Source: a virus (Duplodnaviria; Heunggongvirae; Uroviricota; Caudoviricetes). Taken from it: a stretch of DNA of 50,414 bases. Positions 4,775 through 47,107 of this stretch are shown one piece after another. Both the position numbers and the translations under genes were made by a program. Within the stretch, counting starts at the first letter, position 1; every line of letters starts with the position of its first letter. Below the pieces are notes generated by a model, which was not told the DNA's origin, did no database searches, and saw only the letters and a list, made by a program, of their open reading frames with translations. The stretch is from IMG/VR virus record IMGVR_UViG_2718217859_000006, one strand, 5' to 3'.

Positions 4775-4827
4775 GGGCGGCAGAGCAGTCACGGAGTAAA
4801 ACTGATACCGCCAAACGTCACCAGAAA
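4775..4827 (-). ncRNA. dicF: DicF small regulatory RNA (53 nt, anti-ftsZ), followed by a U-tract
   Basis: Reverse complement reads TTTCTGGTGACGTTTGGCGGTATCAGTTTTACTCCGTGACTGCTCTGCCGCCC then TTTTT, matching the DicF sequence as recalled; correct position between ydfC-like ORF and dicB. Confidence 0.85.
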
Positions 4828-6724: not shown

Positions 6725-7229
6725 ACAGGCTCGTGAGGCTCTGGATGCCTGGATATGTCGACCAGGAATGACACAGGAGCAGGCGACGATATTAATCACT
6801 GAAGCATTCTGGGCTTTGAAAGAGCGCCCGAACATCGATGTTCAGCGTGTCACAGATGAAGGTGGCGCGGTTGATCAGCGAGCACTTGGCGTTAATCGAG
6901 TGAAGATATTCGAACGCTGGAAGGCTATCGACACCAGGGATAAGCGTGAAAAGTTCACGGCGCTAGTGCCTGCAATTATGGAGGCTATTCGGATTAATGA
7001 TTTCAGGTTGTATCGTGAAATTAGTGACGGAAAAAGCATCACGTACATGATCGCCGGGTTAAACAAAGAATATGGCGATGTGGTGGAGTCCGGACTGCTT
7101 TTTGCTGATCCTGCCGTAGTGGATCGTGAAACTGACGAACTTATAGAAAAAGCAATTGCTTTCAAACTTGCGTATCGACAGCAATACCAACAAAAAGCTG
7201 GATGGAATTATGAGCCTTCTTTTTGCTGA
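6708..7229 (+). CDS. YdaT-like protein (lambdoid early-right operon)
   Basis: 173-aa ORF directly after the cro-like gene, the position YdaT occupies in Rac. Confidence 0.65.
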   Translation: MKITPEQAREALDAWICRPGMTQEQATILITEAFWALKERPNIDVQRVTDEGGAVDQRALGVNRVKIFERWKAIDTRDKREKFTALVPAIMEAIRINDFRLYREISDGKSITYMIAGLNKEYGDVVESGLLFADPAVVDRETDELIEKAIAFKLAYRQQYQQKAGWNYEPSFC

Positions 7230-8175
7230 ACGCCCACTGGTTATAAACACACAGCTTGCGATGAAGATTGGCTTAAATGAAGCCATTGTGTTGCAGCAGT
7301 TGCATTACTGGTTGAGAGATACCAATTCCGGCATGGAATGTGATGGTGTTCGCTGGATTTACAACACAACGGAACAATGGCTGGAACAGTTCCCATTCTG
7401 GTCAGAGTCAACGTTAAAGCGCGCGTTTGCAAGTCTGAAAACGCTGGGGCTTTTGCGTTGTGAAAAGCTCAATAAATCAAAGCGCGATATGACCAATTTC
7501 TACACGATCAACTACGGGAGCGAGCTTTTAGATGGTGGCAAATTGAGCGAATCCATCGGTTTAAAATGCGCCGCTCCATCAGGTCAAAATGACACGATGG
7601 AAGAGGTCAAAATGAAACGCTCCATTGGTTCAAAACGACCCAATGTCATCGGGTCAAAATGGCCTGATGATCTTACAGAGAATACAACAGAGATTACTAC
7701 AGAGAATAAAAACACTTTTCGTCCGGAAGCTTCGCAACCGGATCCGCAGACCGCTGAACAGGATTTTTTAACCCGGAACCCCGACGCGGTTGTGTTTAGT
7801 GCGAAAAAACGCCAGTGGGGTAGCAGGGAGGATTTGGCGTGTGCGCAGTGGATTTGGGGGCGGATCGTGAACCTTTACGAACAGGCTGCCAGCGACGATG
7901 GAGAGATCATGCGACCAAAAGAGCCTAACTGGACAGCCTGGGCCAATGACGTGCGCACAATGCGGATGCTGGATGGCAGAAGCCACAGACAAATTTGCGA
8001 AATGTTTGGTCGGGTACAGCGAGATCAATTCTGGGTAAAAAACATCATGAGCCCGTCAAAACTCCGCGAAAAATGGGACGAACTGGTCATCCGCCTGGGA
8101 CGTTCACCTGTAAAGCGTTGTGTGAATCATATTTCTGAACCGGATACAGAAATTCCGCCTGGTTTCAGGGGATAA
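7210..8175 (+). CDS. Putative replication initiation protein (winged-helix N-terminal domain)
   Basis: 322 aa from ATG 7210 (the track start at 7156 is TTG); N-terminal region LNEAIVLQQLHYWL...TLKRAFASLKTLGLL resembles phage replication-initiator DNA-binding domains; position after cro/ydaT. Confidence 0.6.
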   Translation: MSLLFAERPLVINTQLAMKIGLNEAIVLQQLHYWLRDTNSGMECDGVRWIYNTTEQWLEQFPFWSESTLKRAFASLKTLGLLRCEKLNKSKRDMTNFYTINYGSELLDGGKLSESIGLKCAAPSGQNDTMEEVKMKRSIGSKRPNVIGSKWPDDLTENTTEITTENKNTFRPEASQPDPQTAEQDFLTRNPDAVVFSAKKRQWGSREDLACAQWIWGRIVNLYEQAASDDGEIMRPKEPNWTAWANDVRTMRMLDGRSHRQICEMFGRVQRDQFWVKNIMSPSKLREKWDELVIRLGRSPVKRCVNHISEPDTEIPPGFRG

Positions 8176-8215
8176 GTGTTGATTTTAGGGTATAAAGTAA
8201 TGTTCAGGAGGACTT

Positions 8216-8635
8216 GTGGCAAAAGTTTTTACACAAGAAGAGCGGGAAAAAATTAAAGGGCAGGTGGTGGAACTCGTACGCCAGAGTGGGCGCGAGACGT
8301 TACGACAACTGGAAGCTAAAACTGGGGCAACAAGATATCTGATGAGCGTTCTGGCCAGAGAGCTGGTTGCCAGTGGCGATGTATACAGCTCTGGTTACGG
8401 GTTATTCCCGTCTGAACAGGCGCGTAAGGACTGGCAAAACGCCCGCAAAAAACTCTCGAGGGCAAAGGTGAAGAAACCTGCTGTGGTTGATCCGGACCTT
8501 ATCTGGTCATTACCTGACGGAGAAATACGTCGCTACGACAGTCGTCTAAACATAATCTGTCGCGAGTGCCGGAAGGCAAGGAGAAGCAGGCTATTGTTAA
8601 CATCAAGCTGTAATGTCCCCTTTGAACCATTCTAA
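8216..8635 (+). CDS. Hypothetical protein (GTG start with AGGAGG SD); 3' end may be altered by the adjacent IS
   Basis: 139-aa ORF; perfect SD caggagga 4 nt before GTG; runs into the region just upstream of the transposase gene. Confidence 0.45.
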   Translation: MAKVFTQEEREKIKGQVVELVRQSGRETLRQLEAKTGATRYLMSVLARELVASGDVYSSGYGLFPSEQARKDWQNARKKLSRAKVKKPAVVDPDLIWSLPDGEIRRYDSRLNIICRECRKARRSRLLLTSSCNVPFEPF

Positions 8636-10380
8636 AATGTCCCCAGACAATTCTCTGGGGGATTTTTCATGATCAAAGAGACTGTTACGATGAGTCATAA
8701 GGAACTCCACCGACTTCAGATTATTCAGGAGTCAATTAATCGACATATTACTCAGGAACAAGCTGCGGCACGCATTGGCATTTCTATTCGGCAGGTTAAA
8801 CGTCTGGTGCAACGGTATAGAAATGAAGGGCCTTCTGGTCTGGTTTCCCACCGACGTGGAAAGCGTCCTAATAATTCCTTTTCTACTGAATTCAGAGCAA
8901 CAGTAATTTCACTCCTCAAAGGCCGTTACGCTGATTTTGGACCTACGTTTGCGTGCGAAAAATTGCGCGAGATACACGGTTTATCTTTATCCGTTGAAAC
9001 TCTCAGAAAGTGGATGATAGAAGAGGGGTTATGGCGTGAACGCCGTCGTAAAATTGCCCGTATATATCAACGCCGCATGCGACGACCATCTTACGGTGAA
9101 CTGATCCAGATTGATGGCTCACCTCATGACTGGTTTGAAAATCGAGGCCCCAGATGTACACTGATCGTTTTCATTGATGATGCCACCAGTGCGTTGATGG
9201 CGTTGCGTTTTGTGCCTGCTGAAACAACCCGGGCTTACATGGAAACCCTCCGGGGTTACCTTAATGATCATGGCGTACCGCTCGCTCTCTACTCTGATAG
9301 ACACAGTATATTCAGGGTAAATAACCCAGAGCGGGAAGGTGAGCTGACCCAGTTCACTCGTGCGATAAAGACACTGGGCATCGAGCCAATCCATGCCAAC
9401 AGCCCGCAGGCAAAAGGGCGGGTAGAGCGCGCCAATCAGACACTACAGGACAGGCTGGTCAAAGAAATGCGGCTTCAGAATATCAGTGATATTGAAACAG
9501 CAAATGCATGGTTGCCGACCTTTATTGAAGCCTATAACAACCGGTTCGCTACGTCGCCTCGTACTACTGATAATGCTCATCTTGATGTGCACCATTCTGA
9601 AGAGGAACTGGGTTATATCTTCAGCCTACAGGCGAAGCGCGTTCTGTCTAAAAATCTCACTTTCCAGTACAAAAGCAGTGCGTTTCAGGTACGCAGTGAG
9701 GGCCGGGGATATCGACTTAGGCATTCGGTTGTTACTGTATGTGAGAACTTTGACGGTGAAATTAACGTTCTGTATGACGGGAAAGCGCTGGGCTGGGAAA
9801 AGTATGTTGATGGCCCGGAGCCTATACCACTGGATGATGAAAAGAGTGTCCATGAACGAGTGGATAATGCCCGTATTGATTTACGCTCAAAATACTATGT
9901 TAAATCTAAAGCTGACCATCCCTGGCTTACGCGCCGAACGCAAAGTCATCAGCAAGTTAAGCCCCCGAAGTTACCTAAAAAGAAGCCTGATCCCGATAAA
10001 ATAGATTGAAACCAAGATCGATTCGGTTGAGTGCATATCCATTCATAGGGTAGATTCTTAAGTCGCGTTTCTGGTGTTCATTTTCGGGTGGTTTGTTACT
10101 TGTTTTACCGGGGATATGCCAGAAACGCGCTGAGTCAGTCTGGGCGGTGCGCGTAATGAGGCGTTATGGTAAATAGCCTATGCTAATGTCCGCTAAGAGC
10201 AAGAAGCGGAAGTTGGCAGTTTTGTGGACTGTCCCCACAAAAGTGACTACAGAAATAGTTGCAATTCATAATTGATCATGGGTTGTCAGTTAAACTCGTG
10301 GCGATTTAAATAGACTAATTGGGAGTGCGTCCATTACTTATATCTTGTAATGTTAACTATCAGAAATGATACAAAGATAA
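8600..10380 (+). mobile_element. Insertion sequence with a single rve-domain DDE transposase (IS481-like or ISNCY-like); ends not resolved
   Basis: Single 446-aa transposase ORF flanked by non-coding DNA that interrupts the nin-like region; no clean terminal inverted repeats could be identified by eye. Confidence 0.5.
8669..10009 (+). CDS. DDE transposase (N-terminal HTH plus rve integrase-core domain)
   Basis: 446 aa; HTH segment IGISIRQVKRLVQRY; catalytic core with DGSPHDWF, LYSDRHSIF and HANSPQAKGRVERANQTLQDRL (D,D,E-type motifs). Confidence 0.85.
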   Translation: MIKETVTMSHKELHRLQIIQESINRHITQEQAAARIGISIRQVKRLVQRYRNEGPSGLVSHRRGKRPNNSFSTEFRATVISLLKGRYADFGPTFACEKLREIHGLSLSVETLRKWMIEEGLWRERRRKIARIYQRRMRRPSYGELIQIDGSPHDWFENRGPRCTLIVFIDDATSALMALRFVPAETTRAYMETLRGYLNDHGVPLALYSDRHSIFRVNNPEREGELTQFTRAIKTLGIEPIHANSPQAKGRVERANQTLQDRLVKEMRLQNISDIETANAWLPTFIEAYNNRFATSPRTTDNAHLDVHHSEEELGYIFSLQAKRVLSKNLTFQYKSSAFQVRSEGRGYRLRHSVVTVCENFDGEINVLYDGKALGWEKYVDGPEPIPLDDEKSVHERVDNARIDLRSKYYVKSKADHPWLTRRTQSHQQVKPPKLPKKKPDPDKID

Positions 10381-10445
10381 TATGTCTTTAAAGAAAAGGC
10401 TGATGGCGAAAAGTGGCCCGATGAGGGCCACAATACGGCTGTCAC

Positions 10446-10778
10446 TTAGACGTAAATATCAATGGTGCCAGCGGTATTTGTATCGTCTTTTTTCTCTTCT
10501 TTTTTATCAGGCTGAACTGTCGCGTCTTTATTCTTTTTCTCTGCCTGCTGCCTTAACAACTGCTCCAGTTGAGCCCTGAGGCTTTCAATTTGCTTCTGTA
10601 CCAATGCAGCCATTTCTTTTTTCTGCTGTGTCGTCATCCCCTCTTCCGATGAGATTTTCCCAAGCTTTTCAGTCAGCACCTGAATTTGTCTTGTGATTTT
10701 GGCTATTTCTGATGTTCCTTCCGGGGCGGAGTTGTTTGAAATAACGGTTGAGGTATTTCCCTGAATTGTGACAGACAT
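10446..10778 (-). CDS. flxA: FlxA-like protein
   Basis: 110-aa ORF MSVTIQGNTSTVISNNSAPEG...; coiled-coil, Lys/Glu-rich C-terminus; preceded by a sigma-28-type promoter. Confidence 0.85.
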   Translation of the reverse strand: MSVTIQGNTSTVISNNSAPEGTSEIAKITRQIQVLTEKLGKISSEEGMTTQQKKEMAALVQKQIESLRAQLEQLLRQQAEKKNKDATVQPDKKEEKKDDTNTAGTIDIYV

Positions 10779-10801
10779 AGATTTCTCCTTTTAAAAAAGC
10801 A

Positions 10802-10828
10802 CTATCGGCATGCACAAAAAAATCTTTA
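10802..10828 (-). promoter_or_regulatory. Sigma-28 (FliA)-type promoter for flxA
   Basis: Minus strand reads TAAAGATT-N11-GCCGATAG against the consensus TAAAGTTT-N11-GCCGATAA, about 25 nt upstream of the flxA SD. Confidence 0.6.
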
Positions 10829-11247
10829 ATCGTATTTCTTGTGTCATTAATTGTTTGATGTTCAGATTGTTTTCCTCGCGGGCTGGCGCGCCTCAGAAAG
10901 TAAAGCTTGTTGACAGGGGTAAACGTTCGGCAATAATTTTCTGCCGCATGCGGGTGTTGCATAAAACGTGCTACGTTCCTTTATCGACAGGTCAGGTCAC
11001 CGCTCACCCGCCGACGAGAAAGCAACACTGACATGCTAAAGCAAAAAATAGATGAATAAGTTGAGTTGTGCATATGTAGCCTGACCGTCACAAAGTATAT
11101 GGTGTCTGTACCAGTAAGATGATGGCCGGACTCTTTAAAAGCGAGCTGACCTGCACAATACAGGATGGACTTAGCAATGGCTGCTCCTGGCACAAAGCGG
11201 ACAGTGATCACCGTTCTTACGACTACTTTCTGACTTCCTTCGTGACT

Positions 11248-11299
11248 TGCCCTAAGCATGTTGTAGTGCGATACTTGTAATGACATTTGTAATTACAAG
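11248..11299 (+). promoter_or_regulatory. relBE promoter and operator (relO-like inverted TTGTAAT repeats)
   Basis: TTGCCC-N17-GATACT followed by CTTGTAATGACATTTGTAATTACAAG immediately upstream of the relB SD. Confidence 0.6.
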
Positions 11300-11310
11300 A
11301 GGTGTAAGAC

Positions 11311-11550
11311 ATGGGTAGCATTAACCTGCGTATTGACGATGAACTTAAAGCGCGTTCTTACGCCGCGCTTGAAAAAATGGGTGTAACTCCTTCTGAAGCG
11401 CTTCGTCTCATGCTCGAGTATATCGCTGACAATGAACGCTTGCCGTTCAAACAGACACTCCTGAGTGATGAAGATGCTGAACTTGTGGAGATAGTGAAAG
11501 AACGGCTTCGTAATCCTAAGCCAGTACGTGTGACGCTGGATGAACTCTGA
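11311..11550 (+). CDS. relB: RelB antitoxin
   Basis: 79 aa MGSINLRIDDELKARSYAALEKMGVTPSEALRLMLEYIADNERLPF...; overlaps relE start (ATGA). Confidence 0.9.
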   Translation: MGSINLRIDDELKARSYAALEKMGVTPSEALRLMLEYIADNERLPFKQTLLSDEDAELVEIVKERLRNPKPVRVTLDEL

Positions 11551-11837
11551 TGGCGTATTTTCTGGATTTTGACGAGCGGGCACTAAAGGAATGGCGAAAG
11601 CTGGGCTCGACGGTACGTGAACAGTTGAAAAAGAAGCTGGTTGAAGTACTTGAGTCACCCCGGATTGAAGCAAACAAGCTCCGTGGTATGCCTGATTGTT
11701 ACAAGATTAAGCTCCGGTCTTCAGGCTATCGCCTTGTATACCAGGTTATAGACGAGAAAGTTGTCGTTTTCGTGATTTCTGTTGGGAAAAGAGAACGCTC
11801 GGAAGTATATAGCGAGGCGGTCAAACGCATTCTCTGA
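11550..11837 (+). CDS. relE: RelE mRNA-interferase toxin
   Basis: 95 aa MAYFLDFDERALKEWRKLGSTVREQLKKKL...YRLVYQVIDEKVVVFVISVGKRERSEVY. Confidence 0.9.
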   Translation: MAYFLDFDERALKEWRKLGSTVREQLKKKLVEVLESPRIEANKLRGMPDCYKIKLRSSGYRLVYQVIDEKVVVFVISVGKRERSEVYSEAVKRIL

Positions 11838-11908
11838 ACCAAAGCATGACATCTCTGTTTCGCACCGAAGGTGACACTTCTGCTTTGCGTTGACAGGAGA
11901 AGCAGGCT

Positions 11909-12064
11909 ATGAAGCAGCAAAAGGCGATGTTAATCGCCCTGATCGTCATCTGTTTAACCGTCATAGTGACGGCACTGGTAACGAGGAAAGACCTCTGCGA
12001 GGTACGAATCCGAACCGGCCAGACGGAGGTCGCTGTCTTCACAGCTTACGAACCTGAGGAGTAA
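11909..12064 (+). CDS. hokD: Hok-family membrane toxin (51 aa)
   Basis: Below the 60-aa ORF-track cutoff; translated by hand as MKQQKAMLIALIVICLTVIVTALVTRKDLCEVRIRTGQTEVAVFTAYEPEE; directly downstream of relBE as in K-12. Confidence 0.8.
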   Translation: MKQQKAMLIALIVICLTVIVTALVTRKDLCEVRIRTGQTEVAVFTAYEPEE

Positions 12065-12133
12065 GAGACCCGGCGGGGGAGAAATCCCTCGCCACCTCTG
12101 ATGTGGCAGGCATCCTCAACGCACCCGCACTTA

Positions 12134-12160
12134 ACCCGCTTCGGCGGGTTTTTGTTTTTA
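12134..12160 (+). terminator. Intrinsic terminator after hokD
   Basis: CCCGCTTCGGCGGG hairpin followed by TTTTTGTTTTT. Confidence 0.6.
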
Positions 12161-12280
12161 TTTTCAACGCGTTTGAAGTTCTGGACGGTGCCGGAATAGA
12201 ATCAAAAATACTTAAGTAGCGCGCAGGGATAAGAGGGATGGTCCCTTAAAGGGGAGAGCTAATTATCCGGAAGGATTCTG

Positions 12281-12532
12281 ATGATGAACATCGAAGAACT
12301 GCGTAAAATTTTTTGTGAAGATGGCCTCTATGCTGTGTGCGTTGAAAATGGAAATCTTGTTAGTCATTACCGCATTATGTGTTTGCGAAAGAATGGGGCT
12401 GCGTTAATTAATTTTGTGGATGCTCGGGTCACGGACGGATTTATCTTGCGCGAAGGTGAGTTTGTCACTTCATTACAGGCATTGAAAGAGATCGGAATAA
12501 AAGCTGGCTTTTCTGCTTTTTCAGGAGAATAA
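12281..12532 (+). CDS. rem: Rem-like small protein
   Basis: 83-aa ORF MMNIEELRKIFCEDGLYAVCVENGN... in the position rem occupies in Qin. Confidence 0.75.
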   Translation: MMNIEELRKIFCEDGLYAVCVENGNLVSHYRIMCLRKNGAALINFVDARVTDGFILREGEFVTSLQALKEIGIKAGFSAFSGE

Positions 12533-12598
12533 ACTCATCTACAATCTTGCGCGGGGCTGAACTCCCGCTGAGTAACACCGTGCCACCGGAGAAAACCG

Positions 12599-12877
12599 AT
12601 GGCACGCAACGCAAAATATTACAATTCTGATAATTCGCCCGTTCTTGCCTGCACGCACGGGCGGTATTCTCACGCATTCAAGTCTGAATGGTTCCAGCAC
12701 CCTCCATGCACTGCAGAACAGGCCGAATGGCTGATTCATTCTTACCGCAGGCGCGGGTTCGAGGTTAAGAAAGCTCTCAGTCTCGACTATCGGCACTGGA
12801 TAATCTCTGTCAGGCTGCCTTATTCCGAACGCCCACCACGTGCGTCCCGCACTTTCCAGCAACGGATCTGGAGGTAA
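12599..12877 (+). CDS. Hypothetical protein, translationally coupled to ydfU
   Basis: 92-aa ORF with GGAG SD; its stop TAA lies inside the GGAGGTAACGTG start region of the next gene. Confidence 0.45.
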   Translation: MARNAKYYNSDNSPVLACTHGRYSHAFKSEWFQHPPCTAEQAEWLIHSYRRRGFEVKKALSLDYRHWIISVRLPYSERPPRASRTFQQRIWR

Positions 12878-12878
12878 C

Positions 12879-13928
12879 GTGCGGGTATTACTTAGACCTG
12901 TTCTGGTGCCTGAGCTTGGGCTGGTGGTCCTTAAGCCGGGCCGTGAATCCATACAGATATTTCATAATCCTCGAGTGCTGGTGGAACCGGAACCAAAAAG
13001 CATGCGTAATCTGCCATCCGGAGTCGTTCCTGCCGTTCGCCAGCCGCTGGCGGAAGACAAAACATTGCTGCCGTTTTTTAGTAACGAACGGGTGATTCGT
13101 GCTGCTGGCGGCGTTGGCGCATTGTCCGACTGGCTATTACGTCATGTTACATCCTGCCAGTGGCCTAATGGCGATTACCATCACACTGAAACAGTCATTC
13201 ACCGTTATGGTACCGGCGCAATGGTGTTGTGCTGGCACTGCGACAACCAACTGCGTGACCAGACATCGGAATCACTGGAGCTGCTTGCTCAACAAAATCT
13301 GACAGCATGGGTGATTGACGTCATCCGTCACGCAATAAGCGGTACGCAGGAGCGGGAATTATCTTTGGCTGAATTATCCTGGTGGGCGGTCTGCAATCAG
13401 GTGGTGGATGCACTACCTGAGGCTGTATCGCGTCGTTCGCTGGGATTACCAGCGGAAAAAATCTGCTCGGTGTACCGCGAAAGCGACATCGTACCGGGAG
13501 AGCAGACCGCCACCAGCATATTGAAACAACGCACAAAAAATCTTGCACCGTTGCCTTACGCCCACCAGCAACAAAAATCACCACAGGAAAAGACGGTGGT
13601 AAGCATCACCGTTGATCCAGAGTCTCCGGAATCTTTCATGAAGCTGCCTAAACGTCGCCGCTGGGTTAAGGAGAAATACACACGTTGGGTTAAGACACAG
13701 CCGTGTGCTTGCTGCGGTATGCCAGCCGACGATCCGCATCATCTGATTGGTCACGGGCAGGGCGGAATGGGAACAAAAGCACATGATCTCTTTGTGTTGC
13801 CTTTGTGCAGAAAGCATCACAACGAGCTGCATACGGATACAGTGGCATTTGAAGATAAGTATGGCTCCCAACTGGAGCTGATATTTCGTTTTATCGATCG
13901 CGCGCTGGCAATTGGCGTACTGGCGTAA
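12879..13928 (+). CDS. ydfU: YdfU-like protein with C-terminal Cys/His cluster
   Basis: 349 aa from GTG with GGAGG SD; C-terminal CACCGMPADDPHHLIGHG...CRKHHNELH; position upstream of Q. Confidence 0.75.
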   Translation: MRVLLRPVLVPELGLVVLKPGRESIQIFHNPRVLVEPEPKSMRNLPSGVVPAVRQPLAEDKTLLPFFSNERVIRAAGGVGALSDWLLRHVTSCQWPNGDYHHTETVIHRYGTGAMVLCWHCDNQLRDQTSESLELLAQQNLTAWVIDVIRHAISGTQERELSLAELSWWAVCNQVVDALPEAVSRRSLGLPAEKICSVYRESDIVPGEQTATSILKQRTKNLAPLPYAHQQQKSPQEKTVVSITVDPESPESFMKLPKRRRWVKEKYTRWVKTQPCACCGMPADDPHHLIGHGQGGMGTKAHDLFVLPLCRKHHNELHTDTVAFEDKYGSQLELIFRFIDRALAIGVLA

Positions 13929-15328: not shown

Positions 15329-15628
15329 AAAAATTCCTTAATACTGATAACTTGGCGCACTATACACACGTTCCTGAAGAAAGCTATAGTTTTTTGATGG
15401 GGTTGAAGATGGCTGGATGTCTAAAATAAACATTGCTTCATATGTTCAACTATGCGTTAATGATTGCGTCGGTTTGAAGAACAGACGATATACGAAGTAG
15501 TTTACTAAAGCAGTTCTCATTTCAGGTGTTATTCACTTATTCCTTCTTTGAGTCTCTCCAATTAAGTACGAAGTCGTTTCTGTTATGCAAACCATTTATG
15601 CCGAAAGGCTCAAGTTAAGGAATGTAGA

Positions 15629-15844
15629 ATGTCAAATAAAATGACTGGTTTAGTAAAATGGTTTAACGCTGATAAAGGTTTCGGCTTTATTTCTCCTGTT
15701 GATGGTAGTAAAGATGTGTTTGTGCATTTTTCTGCGATTCAGAATGATAATTATCGAACCTTATTTGAAGGTCAAAAGGTTACCTTCTCTATAGAGAGTG
15801 GTGCTAAAGGTCCTGCAGCAGCAAATGTCATCATTACTGATTAA
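15629..15844 (+). CDS. cspB: Cold-shock protein, CspB type
   Basis: 71 aa [38 protein letters not shown]... with RNP1/RNP2 motifs. Confidence 0.85.
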
Positions 15845-16125
15845 AATTCATCGCTCGTCTGTATACGATAACGAAGAAGGCTGATGCCTGAGTAGAGATA
15901 CGGACAGAGTAGTGAATATTGGATCTCTTTAATAAAAAGTAAGGAGGTCCAATACATGAAACAATGGCTAGCATATTTGGCAAAATCTTAATCAGGAAAA
16001 GTATGCTAACCATTGTGGTGAAGTGCAGGTTTGCTGCATGAATAGTTTTACAGCAGAAGCTAACTGCTGGCATGGCAAAACAAAGTGCGTAAGTGGATGA
16101 CTCCCACAAAAAGCACCACAATCTC

Positions 16126-18153: not shown

Positions 18154-18515
18154 GGTAATATTAAATCGGAACATTTACATCGCGGAATGTAAAATTTGAA
18201 TAAAAAGGACTCTTCCATGAGCCAAAATTCCTGAAATCTTAAGGGTAAGATAAAAGGTCTTAATCAGAATGACACGTTTTATTAATAAATAAAGCTATTC
18301 TTTCATTGCTGTGTTTTTCTTTACAAAAGTAATCCTTGCTATGGGTGGTTAATCATGCGTTAATGGTGTTCTGGTTTGTTACAAATTTATCTGAAGCAGT
18401 CATTGTTATAATTTTATTATTTGTACCTCTTGAGATTTCCTTGTTGGTTTTTCTCTCTGATATTTTTTTTCGGACCATTCTGCCCAAGGGCTAATTTCTT
18501 CAAAAGGTAATAATT

Positions 18516-18728
18516 ATGTCTAACAAAATGACTGGTTTAGTGAAATGGTTTAACCCTGAAAAAGGTTTTGGTTTCATCACGCCGAAAGATGGCAGCAAAG
18601 ATGTGTTTGTCCATTTCTCAGCAATTCAGAGCAACGATTTCAAAACATTAACTGAGAATCAGGAAGTTGAATTTGGTATTGAGAACGGACCTAAAGGTCC
18701 TGCCGCTGTTCATGTAGTGGCGCTTTGA
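18516..18728 (+). CDS. cspI: Cold-shock protein, CspI type
   Basis: 70 aa [45 protein letters not shown]... Confidence 0.85.
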
Positions 18729-18999
18729 GGTAGACAATATTACAAACCATATTCACTTTAGATGCCCGTGTTGTCATGGTTCCCAGTATAGAACATCATC
18801 TTTTGATGTTTCTGACATGAATCCTTTCGGGGCAAAATGTATCTTTTGTAAATCAATGATGATTACATTTGATAATATTTCACAATACTTAAATGCCAGC
18901 CGTCTGTCGTTGGATTTAAAAAAGTGAAAATGAAGGCTCCTTCGGGAGCTTTTTTGCTTGGTGTCTATTCGATGGATACTCACATACTACGGTAACATC

Positions 19000-46532: not shown

Positions 46533-47107
46533 TGGCATTCAGAATGAGTGAACAATCACGGACCATAAAAATTTATAATCTGCTGGCCGGAACTAATGAA
46601 TTTATTGGTGAAGGTGATGCATATATTCCGCCTCATACAGGTCTGCCAGCAAACAGTACCGATATTGCACCGCCAGATATTCCGGCAGGCTTCGTGGCTG
46701 TTTTCAACAGTGATGAGTCATCGTGGCATCTCGTTGAAGATCATCGGGGTAAAACGGTTTATGACGTGGCTTCCGGCGACGCGTTATTTATTTCTGAACT
46801 CGGTCCGTTACCGGAAAATGTTACCTGGTTATCGCCGGAAGGAGAGTTTCAGAAGAGGAACGGCACAGCCTGGGTGAAGGATACGGAAGCAGAAAAACTG
46901 TTCCGGATCCGGGAGGCGGAAGAAACAAAAAACAACCTGATGCAGGTAGCCAGTGAGCATATTGCGCCGCTTCAGGATGCTGCAGATCTGGAAATTGCAA
47001 CGGAGGAAGAAATCTCGTTGCTGGAAGCATGGAAAAAGTATCGGGTATTGCTGAACCGTGTTGATACGTCAACTTCACAGGATATTGAATGGCCAGCACT
47101 GCCGTAG
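46532..47107 (+). CDS. tfaQ: Tail fibre assembly protein (Tfa)
   Basis: 191 aa; start overlaps the stf stop (ATGG/TAATGG); typical Tfa position. Confidence 0.85.

Follow-up and report, generated by a model that had tools for sequence, protein, structure and literature searches.

We provide evidence that the toxin-antitoxin pair relBE, as found in a 50,414-nt stretch of DNA from a virus of the Caudoviricetes (IMG/VR record IMGVR_UViG_2718217859_000006; this whole stretch is the window, and all positions are counted in it), forms the right end of a transposon of the insertion sequence (IS) family IS1202 that is inserted at a hok gene. The hok gene behind it, hokD, would be transcribed from the RelB-repressed relBE promoter, and we put the probability of this reading at roughly 0.88. 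Transposon insertion would thereby have brought together relBE and hokD, which an initial annotation of the locus described as two modules placed back to back; they stand in tandem on one strand.

The three genes are intact and all lie on the plus strand. The ribbon-helix-helix antitoxin and repressor RelB (79 amino acids) is encoded at 11311-11550 (PF04221, 1e-32; NF008412 equivalog, 133 bits against a cutoff of 96), the ribosome-dependent mRNA endonuclease toxin RelE (RelE/ParE fold, 95 amino acids) at 11550-11837 (PF05016, 2e-13; TIGR02385, 54.7 bits) and, after a spacer of 71 nt, the Hok/Gef membrane toxin HokD or RelF (51 amino acids) at 11909-12064 (PF01848, 1e-23). The relB stop and relE start overlap in an ATGA at 11550, giving an antitoxin-first bicistron. 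Positions 11200-12200 match the relB-relE-hokD locus of Escherichia coli K-12 MG1655, annotated there inside the cryptic prophage Qin, at 1001/1001 bases, with zero changes in the genes. Pfam, NCBIfam and this identity bear out the gene names first proposed, and the inactivating substitutions in relE or hok that the initial annotation named as evidence against itself are absent. The 2.2 kb around the locus are 100% identical in many E. coli genomes, and this stretch is present at 80% coverage or more in 1121/5426 complete genomes.

The relBE element and its ends

An ISEsa1-like transposon of the IS1202 family spans 8595-11895 (3301 bp). A repeat search over 8400-12200 returned a single exact 16-mer, AGGAGAAGCAGGCTAT, at 8579-8594 and 11895-11910, its copies standing at both edges of the transposase-flxA-ydfV-relB-relE block. 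Because an A follows TTGAC at every junction examined, non-hok junctions included, we assign the first A of the 16-mer to the element, which thus ends in ...TTGACA and is flanked by a 15-nt target-site duplication, GGAGAAGCAGGCTAT, at 8580-8594 and 11896-11910. Within the right copy lie the 13 nt that survive of the hok leader, the Shine-Dalgarno sequence for the most part, and the first two letters (AT) of the hokD start codon; the first A of the hokD Shine-Dalgarno box is supplied by the transposon tip. Left of the insertion lies a remnant of the hok mRNA leader (8566-8579, plus strand; with the left duplication, GTGCCGGAAGGCAAGGAGAAGCAGGCTAT), fused upstream to a DUF977 gene. This remnant retains the position of the sok -35 hexamer, and sok itself is gone.

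The terminal inverted repeats, TGTTAACATCAAGCTGTAATGTCCCC on the left (8595-8620, plus strand) and GGTGACACTTCTGCTTTGCGTTGACA on the right (11870-11895, plus strand), agree at 18 of 26 positions and have 5'-TGT...ACA-3' tips. The right repeat is the best inverted match to the left end across the 50 kb window, and 6 of 300 shuffled left-repeat queries reached 18 matches anywhere in 3.5 kb. The same left end abuts different flanks in plasmids.

Comparison of cargo variants divides the element into a conserved left arm of 1620 bp (8595 to about 10214), variable cargo (10215-11184, from variant alignments and blastn of the arms) and a conserved right arm (11185-11895, plus strand). The left arm encodes a 446-amino-acid transposase of the IS1202/ISNCY family (8669-10009, plus strand; NF033594, 465 bits against a cutoff of 250; Pfam HTH and rve_3), whose RefSeq name is ISEsa1 family. 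The right arm, with promoter, operator relO, relB, relE and right inverted repeat, is 99-100% identical in 16/19 species-representative loci and 92-100% identical overall. Because this arm is conserved across cargo variants, relBE is, by these alignments, a fixed part of the transposon end and not exchangeable cargo. The cargo of the window consists of flxA and most of the ydfV open reading frame (ORF), which other copies replace with genes for a cytochrome b and a cation-diffusion-facilitator transporter. Copies measure 3.3, 4.6, 6.1 or 7.7 kb and carry passenger genes, outside the format of a simple IS (1.3-2 kb with a single transposase ORF). Thus, we regard the relBE element as a cargo-carrying transposon of the IS1202 family and not a plain IS. 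The initial annotation was right that flxA, rem and an IS lie nearby; the IS, however, is the left arm of the same element as flxA, ydfV and relBE.

Phage PhiR42_1 (from ECOR13) is identical to the window over 913/913 nt of the relBE-hokD stretch, and carries a complete hok leader 3.3 kb upstream that ends in ...GGAGAAGCAGGCTAT and continues with TGTTAAC..., the start of the IS. The window junction at 8594/8595 is the same. The whole hok leader with sok stands left of the transposon in PhiR42_1 (PV340562; sok model at 1204-1375) and in about 25 viral contigs. The orphan sok of these copies points into the transposase gene, and the left duplication is preceded by C, not A. The hok promoter and mok start left there may drive or regulate the transposase.

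The K-12 copy is truncated. K-12 is 99.87% identical to the window from 9825 to at least 16000, and a deletion joins window 6987 to 9825, so that in K-12 the transposase gene has lost its first 1156 nt and both the left repeat and the left duplication are missing. The 49-amino-acid ydfW of K-12 (window 9860-10009; K-12 1647174-1647323) is the last 49 transposase codons. Because this deletion removed the left junction, the transposon is not visible in the strain in which relBEF has been studied.

Insertions at hok genes

The element is also found on plasmids of Enterobacter, Klebsiella, Citrobacter, Salmonella and E. coli. For three of these plasmids both junctions were read directly; a script read them in two more loci, which have a fourth hok gene as their common target. 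An Enterobacter asburiae IncF plasmid has it in a different hok gene with the duplication GGAGAAGAAGGCCAT, and the two script-read loci (L012 and L028) show the same 15-mer at the fourth hok gene. A Klebsiella plasmid carries the version with cytochrome b and transporter cargo at a hok beside psiB-psiA (16-nt duplication, GGAGAAGAAGGCTATG), and a Salmonella IncI plasmid carries the element beside trbA at pnd, the IncI hok homologue (duplication TGGAGGGGCTATGAT). Target duplications are 15 nt long (16 in two cases) at no fewer than five insertion sites. When the pnd flanks are joined with one copy of the duplication, the resulting 400 nt occur uninterrupted (400/400) in many IncI plasmids, NC_002122 included. 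Phage mEp460 offers a phage empty site, with the order hok-rem-ydfU-Q and no relBE.

The right-end sequence was then scanned in three collections: species-representative genomes, viral contigs and metagenome contigs. A 22-mer gave 22 loci in the species-representative genomes, three of which (L022, L023 and L025) have no right arm and are chance matches; in 15 of the 19 real loci the right junction is next to the start of a Hok-family gene. Across genomes and plasmids the targets include at least eight different Hok proteins (PF01848 confirmed for seven, E values 8e-12 to 2e-19), and the element ends 12-13 nt before the ATG in 8/9 targets. The viral contigs hold 77 loci, 72 of them of hokD type and one at pnd, and 73 of the 76 readable loci are hok-type; the 72 hokD-type contigs are one ancestral event spread by descent. 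Among the 74 metagenome loci, 72 have readable flanks and about 64 of these are hok-type, comprising 36 of hokD type, about 16 IncF hok variants with further duplication sequences, and 12 in which an IS had already entered the hok gene.

In this last class (L116, L119 and ten further metagenome contigs), the end of an earlier IS comes after the hok leader hairpin and AGGAG, and the 16-nt duplication is made up of 5 nt of hok Shine-Dalgarno sequence and 11 nt of that IS. Because the duplication spans the earlier IS, the hok coding sequence is dispensable for targeting, and recognition lies on the leader side. The leader hairpin has the sequence GCCGNAAGGCA, and a GCCG(N)AAGGCA motif directly precedes the duplication at most sites. 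A single orientation is used throughout, relBE being read toward hok. As far as sequence comparison can tell, the transposon is shown by these junctions to be site- and orientation-specific for the hok translation-initiation region.

The earlier IS encodes an rve-type transposase, has the end TGTATGGGTCCACC... and is inserted in the same hok Shine-Dalgarno box; in L008 and L012 the hok leader also holds ISKpn8. The region where hok translation starts looks like a hotspot for ISs in general. Rearranged copies were seen as well: in L020 (Citrobacter portucalensis) the right repeat abuts an inverted copy of the left flank, marking an inversion, and one viral contig joins a pnd-type left flank to a hokD-type right flank, marking recombination between two copies.

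Roughly random insertion, followed by selection, for example because hok is the only tolerated site or because silencing a plasmid killer gene is favoured, could be reconciled with the minority of copies at non-hok flanks and with the report of Harmer and Hall, who found no target for ISEsa1 (PMC10132070). However, the position is constant within about 1 nt and the orientation single across at least eight divergent hok genes, the same position is used where an earlier IS had taken the place of the coding sequence behind a hok leader, and related IS1202-family members are site-specific (PMC10132070). We consider selection after random insertion unlikely, and infer that the specificity is mechanistic. 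It is an even bet whether the element can further be described as an active IS1202-family transposon dedicated to hok, one that recognises leader hairpin and Shine-Dalgarno sequence, inserts in one orientation 13 nt before the start, swaps Sok control for RelB control and serves as a portable replicon-stability kit.

Less probable still is the arrival of a bare relBE cassette at hokD by illegitimate or homologous recombination, with the IS as an unrelated neighbour. The integration of relBE from plasmids into the ancestral hokD (mok-hok) frame, shortening it, has already been stated, and in those accounts the moving unit is a minimal promoter/operator with two ORFs and the transposase goes unmentioned (PMC6379469, PMC5120126). 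K-12, which shows neither the inverted repeat pair nor the duplication, would agree with such a unit. Yet site-specific 15-16 nt duplications that match the local hok on both sides cannot arise by recombination, the repeats, transposase and right arm always travel together, and a precise empty site exists; we find this route very improbable.

The hokD leader and its control

The transposon reading accounts for what is missing in front of hokD. In canonical loci (K-12 sokC and sokB, and the 933W sokW annotation), antisense transcription begins roughly 49 nt before the hok ATG and proceeds in the direction away from it; sok lies 49-110 nt ahead of that start, and its promoter reaches to within about 14 nt of it. 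On the minus strand of 933W and mEp460 the sokW promoter reads TTGCCT-17-TAACCT; its -35 hexamer occupies the stretch 14-19 nt ahead of the hok ATG, and SokW is annotated to start 7 nt past the -10 hexamer. The homologous minus-strand positions of the window read TGTCAA...ACCTTC. The Rfam model RF01794, a 157-nt hok leader model that includes the Sok target, scores 118 bits at K-12 hokC, 110 at K-12 hokB, 115 in phage mEp460, 113 in 933W and 104 in the left flank of PhiR42_1. It has zero matches in window 10000-13000 at E<=10, and zero matches across the whole window at its gathering score.

The closest hok loci found by BLAST in phages and E. coli genomes (mEp460, 933W, PPompW and others) are 93-99% identical to the window from 11895 onward only, and a three-way alignment places the homology break exactly at AGGAGAAGCAGGCT-ATG. 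The surviving hok leader is 13-14 nt long, essentially the Shine-Dalgarno box, and 11838-11894 is the relE-distal transposon end, including the 26-nt terminal inverted repeat, with no hok leader. The mok frame, which in hok loci of this subgroup shares the frame of hok, is closed by a TGA at 11891-11893 inside the transposon repeat and has no upstream start at hokD; mokW is present in 933W. No hok promoter of its own serves hokD, the upstream DNA being relE and the transposon end. Additionally, the K-12 annotation gives mok and sok for hokB and hokC and neither for hokD.

Thus, because the transposon end replaces the leader and homology starts at 11895, sok is absent at hokD. By these comparisons hokD is without a sok gene, Sok target, mok, tac/ucb leader or hok promoter, and Sok RNA made elsewhere in the cell would find nothing to pair with there. 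The alignment to hok/sok loci proposed in the initial annotation therefore finds no sok, and the absence of any antisense promoter, which it had named as evidence against itself, holds for the hok/sok half of its reading. A promoter scan of the minus strand returned no antisense promoter; the same scan misses the real sokB and sokC promoters, and its result is not used. That relBE and hokD are two self-contained modules, with hokD under a cis-encoded sok-like antisense RNA from about 11840-11910, is hardly credible: hokD is an intact Hok-family gene and this is the right place for sok in a normal locus, but the region is transposon end, the sokW promoter positions included, and the leader model that finds all five controls, the start of homology and the K-12 annotation all speak against it.

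Of regulatory elements, hokD retains only a Shine-Dalgarno box together with the 3' region and terminator native to hok. This 3' untranslated region with its intrinsic terminator (12065-12160, plus strand) shows one mismatch to the phage mEp460 hok locus. The terminator has a G+C-rich stem of 7 bp at 12133-12150 and then a run of T; it closes the unit as originally described and is part of the old hok locus. The structured 3' end of hok (the fbi region) is retained; folding of 11838-12160 gives z = -3.15, and the 5' partner of the fbi element is missing from hokD. Weak Rfam matches to isrK, rsmX and P9 at 12049-12154 were rejected as terminator-driven and far below gathering scores; the isrK match, for example, has 25 bits against a gathering score of 50 and covers the terminator only.

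Upstream, the relBE promoter (11247-11275, plus strand), as read from its sequence, comprises TTGCCC (11247-11252), a 17-nt spacer and GATACT (11270-11275), and scores under the threshold of our promoter scan. It is overlapped by the palindromic operator relO (11275-11298), two abutting 12-bp half-sites, TTGTAATGACAT and TTGTAATTACAA, that form four hexads of the type [A/T]TGT[A/C]A. These agree with the four relO hexads mapped by mutagenesis and footprinting (PMC2812701), and the autoregulated promoter with a relO-like operator proposed in the initial annotation is upheld. Autorepression by conditional cooperativity and the Lon lability of RelB are established on the identical K-12 sequence (PMC2812701, PMC3507626).

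Transcript data from K-12 bear on the downstream gene. One relBEF mRNA was seen there with relB, relE and relF probes, and its induction was abolished by deletion of the relBEF promoter; what remained was a weak transcript made constitutively, which was ascribed to a promoter that the deletion itself had created (PMC3598666). Cleavage by toxin leads the hokD part of the relBEF mRNA to accumulate (PMC3598666). Overexpression of the HokD coding sequence is toxic (bioRxiv 2025.08.07.668861), and hokD mRNA undergoes A-to-I editing in K-12, from Tyr to Cys (PMC5630033); the edited codon is TAC(G) at window 12047-12049, HokD Tyr47.

We therefore envisage the following sequence of events. The element would have entered a hok/sok locus of a lambdoid phage 13 nt upstream of the hok start codon, duplicating a 15 nt target and cutting the hok coding sequence off from its own promoter, tac/ucb, mok frame, Sok target and sok gene. 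The severed upstream parts would have stayed on the left, to be deleted later in this window save for 29 nt. relBE is a classical type II module: RelB, with RelE as co-repressor, shuts the promoter at relO, and loss of the labile RelB frees RelE and de-represses the operon, as experiments on the identical K-12 sequence have established. hokD would be transcribed by read-through across the right repeat, ending at the old hok terminator. Because hokD has no promoter or antisense regulator of its own and only relBE read-through, RelB would gate the supply of HokD at transcription, and RelE activity and hokD mRNA would both go up whenever RelB is destroyed.

Several points weigh against this reading. 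At the HokE-like target L027 the element ends only 3 nt before the ATG. Right junctions without hok make up 4/19 genomic and 7/72 metagenomic cases; later IS insertion, inversion or deletion explains some of these flanks (L015, L020, L062 and L070), and viral contig L064 holds a full-length copy at a non-hok site with a repeat of only 6-7 nt. Transposition activity and target choice are deduced from sequence comparison, and HokD is presumed to be translated from the relBEF mRNA. The 93-nt hokD leader folds no better than shuffles (z = +0.41). Finally, ISEsa1 was described as 1609 bp long with no target duplication and no target reported (PMC10132070), and its kinship with the relBE element is deduced from the NCBI family name and the 1620-bp left arm. 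The catalogued right end of ISEsa1 is likely a mere divergence point of cargo variants, which would be why its duplication and target were missed.

A local hairpin masking the hokD Shine-Dalgarno sequence was considered and dropped, as the leader folds like shuffles. In the minimum-free-energy fold of the 323-nt region, 11886-11899 (transposon tip and Shine-Dalgarno sequence) pairs with 12112-12121, UCCUCAACGC, in the hok 3' untranslated region. If formed, this predicted pairing could hide the ribosome-binding site; other hok targets do not show the 7-nt match to the repeat on which it depends.

Other features, known systems and implications

Further features lie within the element. A cer-like Xer site with an accessory region, identified by similarity and alignment just past the transposase gene in the conserved left arm (10021-10176, plus strand), has the core GGTGCGCGTAA-TGAGGCG-TTATGGTAAAT at 10146-10174, which we take, by its consensus, to be a cer/psi-type XerC/XerD site. 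Many small ColRNAI-type plasmids contain unannotated regions that resemble the 155-nt stretch at 74-82% similarity. Xer-mediated cargo exchange at this site was considered and rejected; because variant homology continues about 40 nt past the site, the point of cargo swap lies outside its central region. The motif TGTCC(C/G)C occurs directly at 8614-8620, 8638-8644 and 10187-10193 and inverted at 11197-11203 and 11870-11876 (TGTCACC at the right tip), and 10187-10207 and 11183-11203, which bracket the cargo, are 76% complementary. These motifs may be internal transposase binding sites or ends of nested units. An internal right repeat defining a 1.6 kb IS was ruled out, as the left repeat has no inverted counterpart near 10200 and 10187-10207 is a direct copy of the motif.

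The cargo gene flxA lies at 10446-10778 (minus strand), and the neighbouring rem at 12281-12532. The ydfV ORF (10981-11286, minus strand) starts inside relO and crosses the boundary between right arm and cargo at 11185. Its first 34 codons are kept in copies with different cargo and the remaining codons are not, it has zero Pfam or NCBIfam matches, and it may not be a real gene. Across the window, Rfam matches above gathering score comprise the small RNA DicF (4775-4826, minus strand), cspA-type thermoregulator leaders in the cspB and cspI regions (15468-15860 and 18370-18755) and an IS009 RNA (46875-47073), which fit a Qin-like lambdoid prophage. Unlike K-12 Qin, the prophage of the window appears largely complete, from integrase to tail genes. 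PADLOC gave zero matches among the proteins, and the role in abortive infection first suggested for the locus finds no support.

The relBEF locus of K-12 shares with the window the sequence of 11200-12200, the gene order, relO and the terminator, and differs in being a truncated copy; in the window the element is complete, which makes it possible to trace how the operon arose. Like canonical hok/sok systems (R1 hok/sok, 933W hokW/sokW, K-12 hokB and hokC), hokD has the toxin, Shine-Dalgarno sequence, 3' untranslated region and terminator, whereas its control has passed from an antisense RNA to the RelB protein, a repressor acting on transcription.

Compared with the IS1202 family (the ISTde1 type with long duplications, the ISAjo2 group and ISEsa1), the element shares the ISNCY/IS1202-type transposase and imperfect repeats of about 26 bp with TGT...ACA tips. 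It also shares the 15-17 nt duplication of the long-duplication branch and a strict choice of target and orientation, as in the ISAjo2 group. It differs in its size of 3.3-7.7 kb, its exchangeable cargo, its cer-like site and the toxin-antitoxin pair fixed at its right end, and its target is the hok ribosome-binding site, not dif or pdif. Published members of the long-duplication branch have duplications of 15-17 nt, repeats of about 24-26 bp and TGT...ACA tips (PMC10132070, bioRxiv 2022.12.17.520857).

We found no description in full-text literature of relBE in an IS1202/ISEsa1-family transposon, of its duplication or of a hok target, although an earlier description may exist, and a recent survey of Hok diversity does not mention the relBE transposon (bioRxiv 2025.08.07.668861). 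The locus itself is already known; the transposon vehicle and its specificity for hok sites appear to be the new part.

In those Tn3-family transposons that carry them, type II toxin-antitoxin pairs are likewise an integral and conserved part. These transposons have a transposase of a different family, and we know of none that targets another toxin gene or has captured a second toxin into its operon. The multimer-resolution site and toxin-antitoxin pair together look like a portable stability kit: the transposon would land on plasmids and prophages by choosing hok loci, which mark such replicons, and relBE and the cer-like site would stabilise the replicon entered.

These findings have implications for one of the most used model toxin-antitoxin systems, K-12 relBE, and for hokD (relF), which is routinely counted among the five hok/sok systems of K-12. 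hokD is not a hok/sok system, which affects its annotation as a type I toxin-antitoxin locus, and on the reading favoured here the relBEF operon would be the scar of a transposition event. Similarly, relBE, flxA, the ydfV ORF and the ydfW fragment would be transposon DNA and not phage DNA. Deletion of relBE would also remove the only promoter of a membrane toxin, and the phenotypes of such deletions would thus need re-reading.

For IS biology, the element would give the ISEsa1 branch its first target and its first duplication length, introduce the ribosome-binding site of a toxin gene as a new type of target, and supply a case in which a toxin-antitoxin pair and a cer-like site are built-in cargo. 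If the transposon is indeed dedicated to hok, this would explain the 40-year-old oddity of K-12 relBEF and why ISEsa1-type elements seemed to be without target duplication or target, and would leave the hok promoter, mok start and sok pointing into the transposase gene. For plasmid biology, it would mean that on many IncF and IncI plasmids hok, pnd and related killer genes have been cut off from Sok control by the element.

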